DNA from: Candidatus Peregrinibacteria bacterium
GTDB lineage: Bacteria > Patescibacteriota > Gracilibacteria > UBA1369 > UBA12463
Assembly: GCA_026395555.1 (NCBI GenBank)
Contig: JAPLYO010000012.1
Span: 4,817-68,816, forward strand
Reading direction: 5' to 3'
Length of the DNA: 64,000 nt
The position numbers and the translations under genes are program-made. The notes beneath the pieces were generated by a model. The model had not been told where the DNA came from. It searched no databases and worked only from the letters and a program-made list of their open reading frames with translations. Below, in pieces: positions 1 through 17,454 of this stretch; the stretch's first letter is position 1, and every line of letters begins with the position of its first letter.

Positions 1-191
1 GTTTTTCTCCTGAATATATATACGCCAAATTTGACGGTAATGGTTGCTATATTCTTGGTGCCAAGTTGGAAGTTGTCGGTACGGGCAATAGTGATAAATC
101 ATTACCTGGATTTGATTTTTGCGCTGGCGCAGCGCCGACGAGTGGTGCCGGTTCAAAGAATTACTATTACGTTGTTGTGAAATATAAGTAG
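1..191 (+). CDS. Type IV pilin-like protein, C-terminal fragment (5' end outside window)
   Basis: Frame 3 is open from the window edge to TAG at 189-191. It translates ...DGNGCYILGAKLEVVGTGNSDKSLPGFDFCAGAAPTSGAGSKNYYYVVVKYK*. This parallels the C-terminal half of the complete pilin at 310-798 (..NKCYYIAATMEVPENNNGKG..PCAIDTAAKTNFYQVVNY*): a Cys-Tyr hydrophobic strand ending in EV, a Gly/Asn loop, a second Cys, and an aromatic/Val-rich last strand. Confidence 0.45.
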   Translation, partial: FSPEYIYAKFDGNGCYILGAKLEVVGTGNSDKSLPGFDFCAGAAPTSGAGSKNYYYVVVKYK

Positions 192-309
192 CATTTTCTT
201 GCTAAATTTTCTCAACATATTCTGATTCGGTTTCCAAAGCCAGTTTAGCTTGTAAAAAAGTGGCTATTTTTGTACACTTGAGATACTTATTTTTCTCACA
301 TATTTACGT

Positions 310-798
310 ATGAAAAAGCTTCTTCAGAGGCGACAGGGATTCACGCTCATCGAGCTCCTGATCGTCATCGTTATCATTGGTATTTTGGCTGTAGGATTCG
401 CTCCAACACTTTTGAATGCCCCAAAGAAGGCTCGTGATGGTGTCAGAAAAGGACAGATCGCAAGCATTCAGCAGGCGGTTGAGGCTTATGCATTAGACAG
501 TAGTACGGCTTCTTATCCGGCAGCCGATGCACAGGGTTGCGTCAATGCAACCGCCCTCAAGCCATATTTCCAGGGAGGTATCGCTCCAGTAGATCCATCT
601 GGTAACACCTATCAGAATGGAGCATGTACGACAAAGGGTTCATTTGCCTATGGACTTGATACTACCAACAAATGTTATTACATTGCTGCAACTATGGAGG
701 TTCCAGAAAATAACAACGGTAAAGGAGTTACTGCTGCCACGCCTTGCGCTATCGATACGGCTGCAAAAACAAATTTCTATCAGGTTGTGAATTACTAA
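310..798 (+). CDS. Type IV pilin-like protein (prepilin-type N-terminal cleavage/methylation motif)
   Basis: The N-terminus MKKLLQRRQG|FTLIELLIVIVIIGILAVGFAP is the classic prepilin motif: G-FTLIE followed by a roughly 20-residue hydrophobic helix. The globular C-terminal half has 4 Cys. A hairpin terminator follows directly. Confidence 0.85.
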   Translation: MKKLLQRRQGFTLIELLIVIVIIGILAVGFAPTLLNAPKKARDGVRKGQIASIQQAVEAYALDSSTASYPAADAQGCVNATALKPYFQGGIAPVDPSGNTYQNGACTTKGSFAYGLDTTNKCYYIAATMEVPENNNGKGVTAATPCAIDTAAKTNFYQVVNY

Positions 799-839
799 TT
801 TTATAGTTTCTTTGGGCGGTATGCGCGTGTCGTGTGCCG

Positions 840-863
840 CCCGAGTTGTTTCTCGGGTTTTTG
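840..863 (+). terminator. Intrinsic terminator-like hairpin downstream of the pilin gene
   Basis: CCCGAG (840-845), loop TTGTTT, CTCGGG (852-857), then TTTTTG. It lies between the pilin stop (798) and the first ATG of the giant ORF (891). Confidence 0.55.
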
Positions 864-14546: not shown

Positions 14547-14557
14547 GCCCTCTCCTC

Positions 14558-16318
14558 ATGAAACGCCCACTCCTTCTATCGCTTACCGTTACACTTCTGC
14601 TCATTGGAGCGGCCGTGCGCGTTGATCATGACGTAGGAATGGGAAGAGCTGTACGGATGGCTCGTTCGGCCTTCGCGGCGACCGATTCTCCCACATTAGA
14701 TCCTCCACCAACCACCCATGCTGTTTTTTCAAAACTATTACAGGGGGTTGGTATTAGTAATCCCAACGGAGAAATTACCTCCGGGGATGTATTTGGTGAT
14801 ACTCCAAAAAACCTCTACATATATACCTATCAGCAGATATTCGAGCGCCCAGATAAGGATGCTATGCTCGAGCTCGCGGGTGCCTATGGACTCACTCTTG
14901 TTGATGCGCAGGCCGTATTGCAGGGCTCGGTTGCTCCACTCATGAGAGGAAAAATTAATTATACGCAGAGCAAGGCCGTTGCCGATGTACAAAAAATTCA
15001 AAAATCCTATAGTGAAATTTTGCGACAGCGACAGATGAAGTACGACCTGCAGTTAGCTGTTTTACCTACTGAGATATTCTCGAATGGCAATCTGGATGAC
15101 TCGGGTTTTGACCTTATTAATGACCTTAATTTGATTGAGGAAGTGCTCTTCGTCGACAAGACCAAGGTCTACCTCAACCAACAACCATTTGGACCAAAAA
15201 GTATCTCTCTCAAGGATGCTGTTCAGAAAATTGCCAACATTGGCTCAACAGGAACTTCTTCGAATCTCGCCGGCTCCTCTGGTGGAGGCACCGCTAACCC
15301 ATCGTCAGACACCTCTCTCGCCTCTAATCAAGCCAAGACATTCACGCTTGATGATATTCTTAAAAGTTCATCTGCCAGCGGAAACCCCCTTAACTACTGC
15401 GCCTCCGGGTCTCCTCTCAACAAGGCGCTCGATCAGTACGCGCAGAGTGGAGCCGATAGTACGAATAACACCTCTTCCGACACTACGGGTCAATCAACAA
15501 ACTCGGGCTCACCGGTGGTTGCAACTTCCATAGAAAATATCGACGTCAGTACTATGACACCTCCCGAGCTCGTCCAGGTTCCTGTAAAATCTCAGGGCGT
15601 CTTCATGCCCCCTACCAATTCTTTCTGCAATGAAATCGGTGGCACCCTTCTCTATACCTATCGTACCAAGATCGGTGGCAGCGAACATGAAATTTTCTGT
15701 TTAAGCTTAGAGAAAAAAATAAGGACCTATACGTCTTTTAGCCCTACAAAAACATGCATTCAATGTACGATTGCCGCCATGAATGAAGACATGAAGAAGC
15801 TTCTATCGAAAAATATCACTCCCAATAAACTTACGGGAAATACCTATGAGTCCACAAAATGTAAGTCTGCTATTCAGCTCTCCGATCGGCTTAATATGAA
15901 CATTATTATGGTTCCAACGCCGGTAATTACGCCGAACAAGTATGGACCTTTTGTTACGGGCGACTTCAGTAAGCGGCTTAATGCGTATGTGAGAAATTAT
16001 CTTCCTTATGGAAATCCAAAAGATAGTACCCCTGAACGCGTGAAAGACGAGGCACTTGCCAATGCCGGCGCAAATGCCGATCAGGTAAATGTCGTCGATC
16101 AGATACAGGCTCAGCTCGCCGTAAATCGCAAAGACTTCATCAATAATCAGTCCATACAACCCATCCAAGACACTGGCGCCTCCAAGAACGCCTCGTATCA
16201 GCAAATGATCAAAGAAATGCGCCAAATGACCGCCTACTTCCAGTCATTCCAGGATATCTTCGTTCGCCTCGGTACCAATGCGCAAAATGTTTGCGATAAA
16301 AATGATGTTAATAGCTAA
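14558..16318 (+). CDS. Secreted hypothetical protein with Ser/Thr/Gly-rich linker (giant-gene-associated, 3 of 4)
   Basis: Signal peptide MKRPLLLSLTVTLLLIGAAV. Low-complexity STG tract (GSTGTSSNLAGSSGGGTANPSSDTS...NNTSSDTTGQSTNSGS). The C-terminal half is Cys-containing and the protein ends ..YFQSFQDIFVRLGTNAQNVCDKNDVNS*. Confidence 0.65.
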   Translation: MKRPLLLSLTVTLLLIGAAVRVDHDVGMGRAVRMARSAFAATDSPTLDPPPTTHAVFSKLLQGVGISNPNGEITSGDVFGDTPKNLYIYTYQQIFERPDKDAMLELAGAYGLTLVDAQAVLQGSVAPLMRGKINYTQSKAVADVQKIQKSYSEILRQRQMKYDLQLAVLPTEIFSNGNLDDSGFDLINDLNLIEEVLFVDKTKVYLNQQPFGPKSISLKDAVQKIANIGSTGTSSNLAGSSGGGTANPSSDTSLASNQAKTFTLDDILKSSSASGNPLNYCASGSPLNKALDQYAQSGADSTNNTSSDTTGQSTNSGSPVVATSIENIDVSTMTPPELVQVPVKSQGVFMPPTNSFCNEIGGTLLYTYRTKIGGSEHEIFCLSLEKKIRTYTSFSPTKTCIQCTIAAMNEDMKKLLSKNITPNKLTGNTYESTKCKSAIQLSDRLNMNIIMVPTPVITPNKYGPFVTGDFSKRLNAYVRNYLPYGNPKDSTPERVKDEALANAGANADQVNVVDQIQAQLAVNRKDFINNQSIQPIQDTGASKNASYQQMIKEMRQMTAYFQSFQDIFVRLGTNAQNVCDKNDVNS

Positions 16319-16326
16319 TCCACCCC

Positions 16327-17454
16327 ATGAAACTTGCACGTACTCATATCGGTAGAATCACCAAACTAGCGTCCCTCGTGGCTTGCGTTGGTATGATTGG
16401 AGTCATTGGGGTCGTGTTCGTGCCCGAGGTAAGTGTCGGTGCTTCATTCAATCCCTTTGGGTCTTCCTCCTATCCGCAAATTCAAGGTTGCCCCGTTAAT
16501 AAGCGCTTTGATAACTGGGGTCGCTTCATCAAGGACGGCGCATCATTCTCTGATTTTTATGAAAACTGGGGCGATATTTTCACTCGGAATTCATGTCAGC
16601 AACAGGATATATTTAGCATTCAAAAAACGATTGAGGGTGCCGAGAACCAGCTCCGACAGAAGATTTTTCAATGTCAGGCCGGCGGCCTCACCGAACTCAG
16701 CACGAAGATTCATGAACTTCAATTCGAACTCGAATATGTTCGTCACGTGATCGACACGGACGACGAACGCCCTGCGCCAGAAGGCACTAAGGGCGAGGTT
16801 CGTCCACCGGCGGCCATCATTCAGCGAATGCGCGACAATCCTATGCTCAAGGATGGCACTATCAGCAGTGACCGCTTCGATACCCTCTTTGCCGCTACTC
16901 AGCAAAAATACGCCTCCCGCGTAGAGCAGTATCGCAACTGCCAGGATGCCGACTGGGCGGCTCTTACTAAGCAGTGGAATAACTTCACCTCGAGCTGGGC
17001 CGGACTTAAACCAGCCGCACAGCAATCCACTAAGTCGCTCGCCAATCGTGTTAATGTATTCCTCGATGTTCCTTCGGATCATAATGGCCGTTTCCTTGGC
17101 GGACTCCTCGATATCAAGATGAATAAGCTCACCCCAGAACAGAATCTCGCCGGCGTCTACAACAACCTGACTCGTGACTTACGCACGGGAACCGCAAAAA
17201 GTCCGCCGGATTACTCCACCTTCCTCGATAACGCCACGAGCGAACATGATCGCTACAATCAGGACGAAGAAAATGCGAAGCGCAAAGCATACTATGAAGG
17301 GCTATACCGCTACACTTCTGATGCCTCGGGCGATGAGGTTAAAAAGGAGCTTATCAATATGAATGGTGTTATTCAGGGCACCATCCAGCCGGTTATCGAC
17401 AATGTTCGTTCTTGTACCGCCCTGATTGCGAAAAGGCAGTGCGGGGGCAAGTAG
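16327..17454 (+). CDS. Membrane-anchored/secreted hypothetical protein (giant-gene-associated, 4 of 4)
   Basis: N-terminal hydrophobic anchor LASLVACVGMIGVIGVVFVP. The body looks helical. Cys occur at ..RNSCQQQD..IFQCQAGG.., ..YRNCQD.. and at the C-terminus (..NVRSCTALIAKRQCGGK*). Confidence 0.65.
   Translation: MKLARTHIGRITKLASLVACVGMIGVIGVVFVPEVSVGASFNPFGSSSYPQIQGCPVNKRFDNWGRFIKDGASFSDFYENWGDIFTRNSCQQQDIFSIQKTIEGAENQLRQKIFQCQAGGLTELSTKIHELQFELEYVRHVIDTDDERPAPEGTKGEVRPPAAIIQRMRDNPMLKDGTISSDRFDTLFAATQQKYASRVEQYRNCQDADWAALTKQWNNFTSSWAGLKPAAQQSTKSLANRVNVFLDVPSDHNGRFLGGLLDIKMNKLTPEQNLAGVYNNLTRDLRTGTAKSPPDYSTFLDNATSEHDRYNQDEENAKRKAYYEGLYRYTSDASGDEVKKELINMNGVIQGTIQPVIDNVRSCTALIAKRQCGGK

Follow-up and report, generated by a model that had tools for sequence, protein, structure and literature searches.

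What does a gene of 12.3 kb, followed at once by four smaller genes for exported proteins, do for a bacterium that is probably a tiny, host-dependent cell? The question is raised by a 64,000-nucleotide (nt) stretch of DNA, here called the window, from a metagenome-assembled genome (MAG) of Candidatus Peregrinibacteria (assembly GCA_026395555.1, contig JAPLYO010000012.1, positions 4,817-68,816, forward strand), which uses the standard genetic code 11. One open reading frame (ORF) in the window encodes a giant protein of 4,088 amino acids (aa) that, with the four genes downstream of it (d1-d4), takes up about 1% of the genome. NCBI annotates the giant product (MCX6733383.1) as an 'FG-GAP-like repeat-containing protein' and each of the four downstream products as 'hypothetical protein'. 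We propose that the locus encodes a giant surface fibril, tethered by SLH repeats and served by four exported proteins dedicated to it, through which the cell makes contact with other cells or with surfaces, and that the type IV pilin genes upstream are a separate neighbouring unit; we hold this to be somewhat better than an even bet, with a probability of roughly 55%.

An earlier note on this DNA had described a pilin pair, a terminator, a single 12.3-kb ORF and four co-directional genes for exported proteins, all of which are present (Table 1), as is the ATGA formed where the giant TGA (13155-13157) overlaps the d1 ATG (13154-13156). The giant ORF is without interruption from 834 to 13157, with the ATG at 891 giving the product of 4,088 aa. 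That it is one contiguous ORF, a point on which the note had asked for a check, is borne out by a Logan re-assembly of SRR20698644, which yields a 100% identical giant product (the reads may be those behind the MAG), and by collinear homologues in at least 179 genomes.

The most widely conserved part of the giant protein is a Cys/Pro-rich core. With aa 2333-2980 as query, HMMER was run exhaustively against 1.84 billion representative proteins and matched 393 representative clusters, of which 201 reached E<=1e-30. Almost all of the matches lie in proteins of 3,500-6,000 aa, at a similar relative position. When the whole giant protein was profiled against the best 150 core-bearing representatives, the core (aa 2300-3000) was conserved in about 147, the N-terminal domain (N-domain) in 108, aa 1450-2150 mostly in about 100-130, aa 3150-3950 including the SLH region mostly in about 85-130, aa 950-1100 (approximately) in up to about 72 and the C-terminus in about 50. 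Conservation was poor in the two low-complexity linkers and at aa 550-950, where over most of the segment about five representatives align; the insert that carries the PDZ-like stretch and the DxNGNGK loops is the least conserved section of the protein by sequence. Because the modules are conserved collinearly, with the same domain order across the 150 representatives, the 'mosaic' protein of the earlier note gives way to one old orthologous architecture. On these alignments the giant architecture is ancient and orthologous, and the core is its signature.

A scan with one genome per species found the core encoded in at least 179 species genomes, and the locus-level results given here concern 80 loci of these genomes, each from a different species genome and numbered with the prefix L. 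By label, nearly all of the 80 belong to Peregrinibacteria, Peribacteria, Gracilibacteria or Patescibacteria, the others being one 'Nitrospirota' MAG, one Altimarinota MAG and two unclassified 'bacterium' records. The contig binned as 'Nitrospirota' (L024, JAUVQE010000014.1) has a full family member including core and tail, which most probably points to faulty binning and not to a genuine family member outside the candidate phyla radiation (CPR). In another relative (L001; ERZ1300416 NODE_6929, coverage 1.8x) the homologous giant gene is broken into about ten short called genes, and fragmented gene calls of this kind hide the family in protein databases.

Homologues of d1-d4 were sought at the family loci by single-sequence searches and then with hidden Markov models (HMMs). 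The order giant gene, d1, d2, d3, d4, with all five on the same strand, adjacent and often overlapping, is found at about 45 of the 47 informative standard-code loci; homologues of d1-d3 directly follow the giant gene in 45-47 loci (46 for d1) and those of d4 in 41. Wherever a standard-code locus extends far enough downstream, the array is essentially always there, with L054 as the exception; three further contigs (L083-L085) repeat it. The conserved linkage in relatives on which the earlier note had made its proposal depend is thus present, and gene order supports the view that the giant gene and d1-d4 are one conserved unit. An HTH_17 gene and UvrA, convergent on the cluster, are likewise kept in about 20 loci.

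Each of the four small proteins opens with a hydrophobic signal-like segment (for d2 the ATG at 13806 is the likelier start than that at 13695). Alignment of d1 with d2 by hhalign (91.5%, E 9e-7) shows them to be distant paralogues, each with three invariant Cys of which one lies within about 10 residues of the C-terminus; comparison with both led us to reject d4 as a relative of either. Five or more Cys, including a CxxC, are invariant in d3 and at least three in d4, where more are kept in most members. Odd Cys counts in exported proteins suggest that d1-d4 form intermolecular disulfides. None of the four matches a known family in Pfam, NCBIfam or PHROGs, and among searches of d3 and d4 profiles against the PDB there was no match for d3 and a weak helical-bundle match for d4. 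The check for housekeeping genes among the four, also called for in the note, returned none: all are new families. A phage origin was considered and rejected, the sole PHROG match being a tape-measure protein at E 0.001 over a low-complexity stretch.

The five genes also change together. Relative to L003, amino acid identity is 97.5% for UvrA, 78% for the giant protein, 71-81% for d1-d4 and 52% for the pilin; relative to L006/L007 these values are 90-93%, 41-42%, 38-45% and 47% (pilin, L006), and relative to more distant loci 71-78%, 27-30%, 20-34% and 36-50% (pilin, where present). Nonsynonymous divergence (dN) from L003 is 0.119 for the giant gene, 0.12-0.20 for d1-d4 and 0.025 for UvrA, so that in dN the giant cluster runs about five times faster than UvrA. 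The ratio of dN to synonymous divergence (dS) in the giant gene is about 0.07 overall and about 0.04-0.15 in every 150-codon window that could be computed against L003, with dS saturated. Within the giant protein, change is slowest in the N-domain, in the FG-GAP repeats, where identity to L003 is 96%, and in parts of the core, and fastest in the linkers at aa 1101-1200 and 3001-3200. The five genes are real, are under purifying selection and co-vary in divergence; being constrained, fast and changing in step, they show a pattern that fits interacting, surface-exposed proteins.

Two observations on divergence stand apart from this pattern. The two hypervariable low-complexity linkers (9888-10460 and 4191-4490), N/T/G/K-rich and S/T-rich, have 32-69% identity to relatives as against about 79% for the protein overall. 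The dS from L003 is about 1.5-3, and saturated, over the giant cluster (891-17454) and 0.66 for the adjacent UvrA gene (19456-22416), a gap that may be due to constrained codon usage in UvrA, or to alleles of the surface cluster that are older or have been exchanged.

About 20 loci have a giant ORF that is intact (>4,000 aa where the contig permits) only under code 25, in which UGA encodes Gly, so the family spans recoded Gracilibacteria too. These giant proteins retain the N-domain and the core (E 1e-52 to 1e-130) and stop directly past the beta-rich tail (L057-L082, e.g. L064:1190-13891). In them we found no SLH, no CxxCPC region and no obvious C-terminal anchor; the d1-d4 HMMs, run against the loci, found nothing there, the loci have no upstream pilin, and their neighbouring genes vary. 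The SLH tail and d1-d4 therefore co-occur across loci, with L054 as sole exception, and their being present together and gone together suggests that d1-d4 act at the wall-proximal end of the giant protein.

How much of the domain content can be recognised? The signal peptide of the giant protein is of the typical Sec type (MPHFSLKHSIVAVVLAAFLAVNVAQVPVVFA, then DA). FG-GAP_3 scores 61.3 bits (cutoff 26.9, E 1e-16) over three stretches within aa 2006-2180, and FG-GAP 29.4 bits (cutoff 22.1); the repeats detected are three contiguous ones and one distant FG-GAP-like loop at aa 3205-3240 (approximately), whereas seven blades close a propeller. Pfam SLH scores 24.2 bits (cutoff 20.8) at aa 3768-3812, and a profile of the C-terminal 330 aa built from 27 family members matches the SLH trimer of SpaA (6CWC) at E 3e-7 over 167 positions, the alignment spanning residues 6-155 of 182 in that trimer. 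The match to a three-repeat domain supports three SLH repeats here, which carry the TRAE-like motifs LRAE, SRAE and TRGD. Signal peptide, FG-GAP repeats and the three SLH domains were all proposed in the earlier note and all hold up, and Sec signal and SLH matches together support a secreted surface protein with a C-terminal SLH region. The calcium-loop repeats (DxNGNGKxD), the NKDSNHDGIPDYIDG motif and the terminal coiled coil that it listed are likewise visible in the sequence; where the window protein has the coiled coil, relatives have TSP3-type DxDxDG calcium repeats. The SLH-bearing members close with a conserved GxYxVPxECNTCPC...KSN mini-domain, whose Cys columns are invariant.

Other modules are only partly secured. 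Four Ig-like domains had been counted, of which one, at aa 1460-1550, is above the cutoff in Pfam (Glyco_hydro2_C5 / Invasin_D3) and the remainder are read from sequence pattern. The PDZ-like stretch is weak in the window protein (PDZ_2 19.8 bits, cutoff 27; DegP PDZ region E 7e-6) but PDZ_6 is above cutoff at the same position in the homologue P0060 (33.6 bits, cutoff 27). Of the FN3-like and PKD-like segments, the former is faint (fn3, E 0.06), and the latter consists of a DASxSFD motif in the family consensus and a weak match in L001. The beta-rich tail of this region is conserved in the family and had no match in the PDB. Pfam and NCBIfam gave no match in the giant protein to RTX nonapeptides, a type I secretion signal or extender-repeat arrays, and its C-terminus (...ILPVLPTSL) has no LPXTG with membrane anchor and charged tail. 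No CsaB-type PS_pyruv_trans match was found in the part of the window's ORFs that was scanned.

The two modules shared most widely are the least familiar. An AlphaFold2 (AF2) model of aa 30-450, made with 21 family rows, exceeds a predicted local distance difference test (pLDDT) score of 90 over model residues 25-270 or so (giant aa 55-300, approximately), and the domain is conserved in the code-25 relatives as well as in 108 of the 150 representatives. Its best Foldseek matches in the PDB (best E 0.025) are generic flavodoxin-like three-layer alpha/beta folds, among them a ribose-binding-protein lobe, azoreductases and type II dehydroquinases. At E of about 0.13 the matches include Raptor, which we take to be caspase-like in its N-terminal region. 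The resemblance to a gingipain/C25 caspase-like fold suggested in the earlier note fails at the level of both sequence and fold: the top 50 Foldseek matches contain no gingipain or caspase, Peptidase_C25 matches none of 19 N-domains even at E<=10, and the N-domain alignment has no conserved Cys. Neither Pfam nor a profile search of PDB sequences gave a match. Invariant polar residues are R64, R67, K133, S140, D146 and D198-K-N-H201. From alignment and model, the N-domain is an undescribed conserved alpha/beta module.

The core, which the note could not assign, resists assignment here also: it is confirmed as a segment of about 650 aa with no match among PDB sequences (profile search) or in Pfam and no significant PDB fold (Foldseek, best E 0.23), and yet it is the family signature. 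It is made up of a beta part rich in Cys, long helices, a CxxC that is invariant, a hydrophobic stretch and proline runs of the form LPxLP. The invariant Cys comprise a CxxxC and three more in the beta-rich part, the CxxC and one later, and the Pro of the LPxLP runs are invariant. The AF2 model is modest (pLDDT 63, predicted TM-score (pTM) 0.43), with a helix of about 105 residues, beta-hairpins and unstructured polyproline. The conserved, proline-containing hydrophobic stretch after the CxxC has a mean Kyte-Doolittle hydropathy of 1.5, and core-region hydrophobic segments of some code-25 homologues reach transmembrane-like values.

Upstream of the giant gene, the pilin at 310-798 has a class III signal and hydrophobic alpha1 helix (RRQGFTLIELLIVIVIIGILA) with a T2SSG-like body, and scores 36.4 bits for N_methyl (cutoff 21.2), 34 bits for TIGR02532 (cutoff 16.3) and 20.9 bits for T2SSG. 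The fragment at 1-191 is 33% identical to the C-terminus of this pilin (E 0.002), and its full-length counterparts in L003/L004 bear the GFTLIEL pilin motif. Between pilin and giant gene lies a terminator-like hairpin (839-858) with a T-run and a longer alternative stem (811-845), the fold z-score against shuffles being -4.1, and a hairpin 3' of the pilin gene is present in most relatives folded. Of 14 standard-code genome loci with 620 nt or more of sequence before the giant gene, 10 have pilin genes directly 5' of it and on its strand; L083-L085 do too, for a total of 13 in 17. The gap is 27 nt in L084, and distant relatives have an intergenic region of 120-770 nt with promoter-like boxes before the giant gene. 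The PilY1/PilC C-terminal propeller (PF05567) is absent from the Pfam and NCBIfam matches at E<=0.1, and a prepilin N-terminus was found in none of the giant protein and d1-d4. As separate observations, the region L014:3-1551, directly before the pilin-giant-d1-d4 array, contains ORFs judged by eye to resemble a PilB/GspE-type ATPase in its C-terminal part (GCxxC...GYxGRxG) and a PilC/GspF-like membrane protein; L003/L004 have an Ldh-like gene in that place, and the upstream ORF of L032 ends with an SLH-like motif.

Taken together, these features suggest the following working model. The giant protein would be exported by Sec and held non-covalently on a wall polymer by the three SLH repeats near its C-terminus, so placed that about 3,700 residues, with little repetition, may stand out from the cell as a fibril. 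Counted from its tip towards the wall, the fibril would present the alpha/beta head, the PDZ and calcium loops, Ig-like spacers, FG-GAP repeats, the Cys/Pro-rich helical core and then fn3/PKD-like and beta-rich modules. The translationally coupled, Cys-bearing d1-d4 would assemble with it as dedicated partners, probably at the wall-proximal SLH/C-terminal end and probably stabilised by disulfides; the Cys close to the ends of d1 and d2 and the invariant CxxCPC at the end of the giant protein were counted toward such a link with the anchor end. The complex may mediate contact with another cell, host or prey, or with a surface, and contact with a host or particle is an inference; published findings on Vampirococcus and on the pili of Saccharibacteria, given below, were counted in favour of such a role. 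The pilin genes would be a separate transcription unit, whose pili may cooperate in attachment. The joint apparatus of pilins, giant protein and four small proteins put forward in the earlier note thus stands as regards the giant protein and d1-d4, but the pilins are better seen as neighbours and possible collaborators than as parts.

Several points weigh against this reading. The N-terminal 'tip' is 94% identical to that of L003, compared with 79% overall, which is less what one would expect of a host-specific adhesin than of an enzyme or a conserved ligand, and no window shows positive selection (none exceeds 0.15 against L003, with dS saturated). Since the order of HTH_17 and UvrA is conserved as well, adjacency alone is weak evidence at such phylogenetic depth, above all for the pilins. 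L054 has the SLH tail without adjacent d1-d4, and N-domain and core, the two family-wide modules, are without a recognisable fold or family.

The conserved tip and core, with purifying selection throughout, would also suit a structural envelope scaffold. In it the giant protein and d1-d4 would be core components of the cell envelope, as parts of an S-layer, of a lattice associated with one or of a frame that organises the wall, and not a contact device. All 80 loci listed come from different species, gene order is collinear across the clade including the recoded lineages, the locus is embedded among housekeeping genes and has ordinary base composition, the SLH anchor is that of S-layer proteins, and fast evolution is seen in these proteins too. 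We nevertheless consider a scaffold unlikely, if worth keeping in view, since a non-repetitive protein of 4,000 aa with PDZ, FG-GAP, Ig-like and PKD-like modules is atypical of lattice S-layer proteins and the code-25 relatives entirely lack the SLH region. The SLH tether also speaks against a PilY1/PilC-like adhesin carried on the pilus or at its tip, with the giant protein riding on or priming the type IV pilus of the upstream pilins, because it attaches to the wall and not to a filament. The comparison drawn in the earlier note goes no further than analogy. In its favour, 13 of 17 standard-code loci have pilins directly before the giant gene and on its strand, the gap being as small as 27 nt (L084), PilB-/PilC-like ORFs (by eye) come before the pilin in L014, and the giant protein has FG-GAP repeats and calcium-loop motifs; moreover, no promoter is clearly visible in the window between the terminator and ATG 891, which makes read-through possible. 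Against it, no PilY1/PilC domain was found, all five proteins are without a prepilin N-terminus, the pilin gene ends at a strong terminator and in distant relatives the gap is 120-770 nt with promoter-like boxes, the code-25 relatives have no upstream pilin, and the conserved places of UvrA and HTH_17 show that neighbours can be kept here without a functional link. We regard a pilus adhesin as improbable.

About as doubtful is a prey-breaching or feeding device, in which an enzyme in the N-domain and/or the core would open or insert into a host envelope with d1-d4 as helpers. The N-domain and core are the sole parts conserved clade-wide, code-25 Gracilibacteria included; the N-domain has invariant polar residues; the core has a helix of about 105 residues followed by CxxC and a hydrophobic stretch, with transmembrane-like values in some code-25 homologues; and one of the relatives is a predator that feeds on host cytoplasm (PMC8080830). 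Set against these are the lack of significant similarity to a hydrolase, pore-former or fusogen (helical-bundle and pore-toxin folds score E above 0.2), the modest model of the core (pLDDT 63, pTM 0.43), and the proline-rich character of the hydrophobic stretch, which may simply be buried. A related conjecture, and one to which we attach little weight, takes the N-terminal head and the 650-aa core as the working parts of an undescribed device that breaches or couples to the host envelope, with the SLH tail and d1-d4 as its wall-embedded base in Peregrinibacteria; if it were true, the locus would encode a new cell-to-cell contact or feeding organelle and not an adhesin. The MAG source and the exceptional length of the ORF for such a genome might, finally, raise the suspicion of an assembly chimera or a non-functional, one-off mosaic ORF. 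We rejected this explanation, to which we now give almost no credence, on the identical product in the separate Logan assembly, the collinear homologues in at least 179 genomes, and a dN/dS of about 0.07 in every computable 150-codon window.

Table 1. Features at the left end of the window (window coordinates)
Feature	Position	Strand	Basis
First type IV pilin-like gene, 3' end, truncated by the window edge	1-191	+	33% identity to pilin 2 C-terminus
Type IV pilin / pseudopilin-like gene, 162 aa (pilin 2)	310-798	+	Pfam N_methyl, T2SSG; TIGR02532
Intrinsic terminator-like hairpin(s) and T-run, 3' of pilin gene	811-866	+	Fold z = -4.1
Giant gene, 4,088 aa, NCBI MCX6733383.1	891-13157	+	Intact ORF
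Sec signal peptide, aa 1-31 (...VFA/DA)	891-983	+	Hydrophobicity scan and sequence; predicted cleavage site
Conserved N-terminal alpha/beta domain, aa ~55-400, undescribed	1053-2090	+	Family conservation, AF2 model
PDZ-like domain, aa 533-628	2487-2774	+	PDZ_2 E 1e-3, below cutoff
Two DxNGNGKxD calcium-loop-like motifs	3195-3290	+	Read from sequence
Ig-like region (Big / GH2_C5 / Invasin_D3-type)	4488-5870	+	Pfam match aa 1460-1550, E 3e-16; further putative Ig-like domains from sequence pattern
FG-GAP repeats, three	6906-7430	+	Pfam FG-GAP_3, 61 bits
Family-defining Cys/Pro-rich core, aa 2330-2990	7878-9860	+	Representative-protein search, invariant Cys/Pro columns
Hypervariable low-complexity linker, aa ~3000-3190	9888-10460	+	32-56% identity to relatives ~79% identical overall
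Fourth FG-GAP-like loop, fn3-like and PKD-like segments, conserved beta-rich tail	10503-12170	+	
Three SLH repeats, aa ~3760-3975	12168-12815	+	Pfam SLH and 6CWC profile match
Coiled coil, then conserved C-terminal CxxCPC mini-domain	12813-13154	+	Sequence; invariant Cys columns
d1, 207 aa, exported, new family, three invariant Cys	13154-13777	+	ATGA overlap, alignment, homologues beside giant gene
d2, ~246 aa, exported, three invariant Cys	13806-14546 (ORF could begin 13695)	+	Alignment, hhalign to d1
d3, 586 aa, exported, new family, conserved Cys incl. CxxC	14558-16318	+	
d4, 375 aa, exported, new family	16327-17454	+	

Beyond d4 and on the opposite strand lie the HTH_17 gene, a 202-aa ORF without assignment, UvrA, PrsW and a RecF-like gene. 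The HTH_17 gene (MerR/excisionase-type; 17853-18266, - strand) sits between d4 and UvrA in 23 related loci, and it may regulate the cluster, or its place may be no more than conserved gene order. The remaining window consists of housekeeping genes, including ThrRS, ATP synthase and purine genes, and the base composition of the giant locus is ordinary. No tRNA or Rfam element was found in the window.

Other features of the window are recorded here for completeness. Two paralogous DUF1246/DUF1297 genes (55923-56948 and 58082-59407), which we take to be of the PurP-type ATP-grasp pair usually described in archaea, lie in a purine neighbourhood with PurL-like (50124-52541) and PurH (53800-55341) genes. 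The ATP synthase region (29093-35916) has a seemingly unusual order, with beta and a small ORF, the a subunit, small subunits, alpha, and a 306-aa ORF at the expected place of gamma; the subunits backed by Pfam are alpha, beta and a only. Four large ORFs on the - strand have no Pfam match (26485-28938, 817 aa; 35936-39925, 1,329 aa; 40047-42542, 831 aa; 43031-44626, 531 aa) and no similarity to the giant protein or d1-d4, the 831-aa ORF having a signal peptide and an Ala-rich N-terminal region.

Published CPR genome papers mention 'giant proteins' and pili in general terms, and here one such protein becomes a defined, searchable family. It adds six new families or domains for databases – the core, the N-domain and d1-d4 – and is a concrete candidate for the contact apparatus of the Peregrinibacteria-Gracilibacteria-Absconditabacteria clade. 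In the literature searched we found no description of the core, the N-domain, the SLH version, the four partner families or their linkage, in agreement with the earlier note, which did not know the gene combination as a described system; an Omnitrophota giant-gene preprint (bioRxiv 10.1101/2023.11.21.568195) and a Gracilibacteria metaproteome paper do not describe the giant family.

Where, then, does the locus stand among known systems? Like SLH surface proteins of monoderm bacteria such as Paenibacillus alvei SpaA (6CWC), the giant protein combines Sec export, three tandem SLH repeats and a passenger beyond the anchor. Bacillus anthracis Sap and S-layer-associated proteins, and the Clostridium thermocellum scaffoldins with a C-terminal triple SLH, are comparable SLH-anchored proteins. 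It differs from them in its passenger of about 3,700 aa, made up mostly of undescribed modules, in the extra CxxCPC domain past the SLH repeats, in the four-gene accessory set beside the gene, and in having code-25 orthologues without SLH. With the giant fibrillar and RTX adhesins (LapA, SiiE, MpIBP; Ebh/Embp) it shares very large size, export, Ig-like spacers, calcium loops, an anchor at one end with a distinct domain at the other, and fast evolution; unlike RTX-type adhesins, it has no near-identical repeat array, RTX/type I signal or LPXTG, its domain order is fixed across a class-level clade, and its 650-aa core has no counterpart there. The likeness to PilY1/PilC lies in pilin-adjacent genes and propeller-type repeats with calcium sites, whereas the FG-GAP repeats here are not a PilY1-type propeller, the protein is SLH-tethered, a terminator follows the pilin, and the linkage is missing in code-25 relatives.

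The giant proteins of other ultra-small prokaryotes, which include the SPEARE proteins of Nanohaloarchaeota, are like this one in being the product of the largest gene of a reduced genome, in their predicted surface location and in the role in host recognition and attachment proposed for them. A Peribacteria genome encodes large exported Cys-rich proteins, two with FG-GAP, together with S-layer genes and type IV pili (PMC4736985), and in Saccharibacteria type IV pili are essential for host adhesion (Xie et al. 2022, PNAS, as cited in PMC11452946). In Vampirococcus lugosii, a cultured relative, the surface is fibrous and giant proteins are enriched in the membrane proteome; its longest product, the 4,163-aa 'hypothetical protein' VAMP_16_20, has been proposed by its authors to act in host recognition and attachment (PMC8080830). 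Judged by size and clade, VAMP_16_20 is likely an orthologue of the giant family described here.

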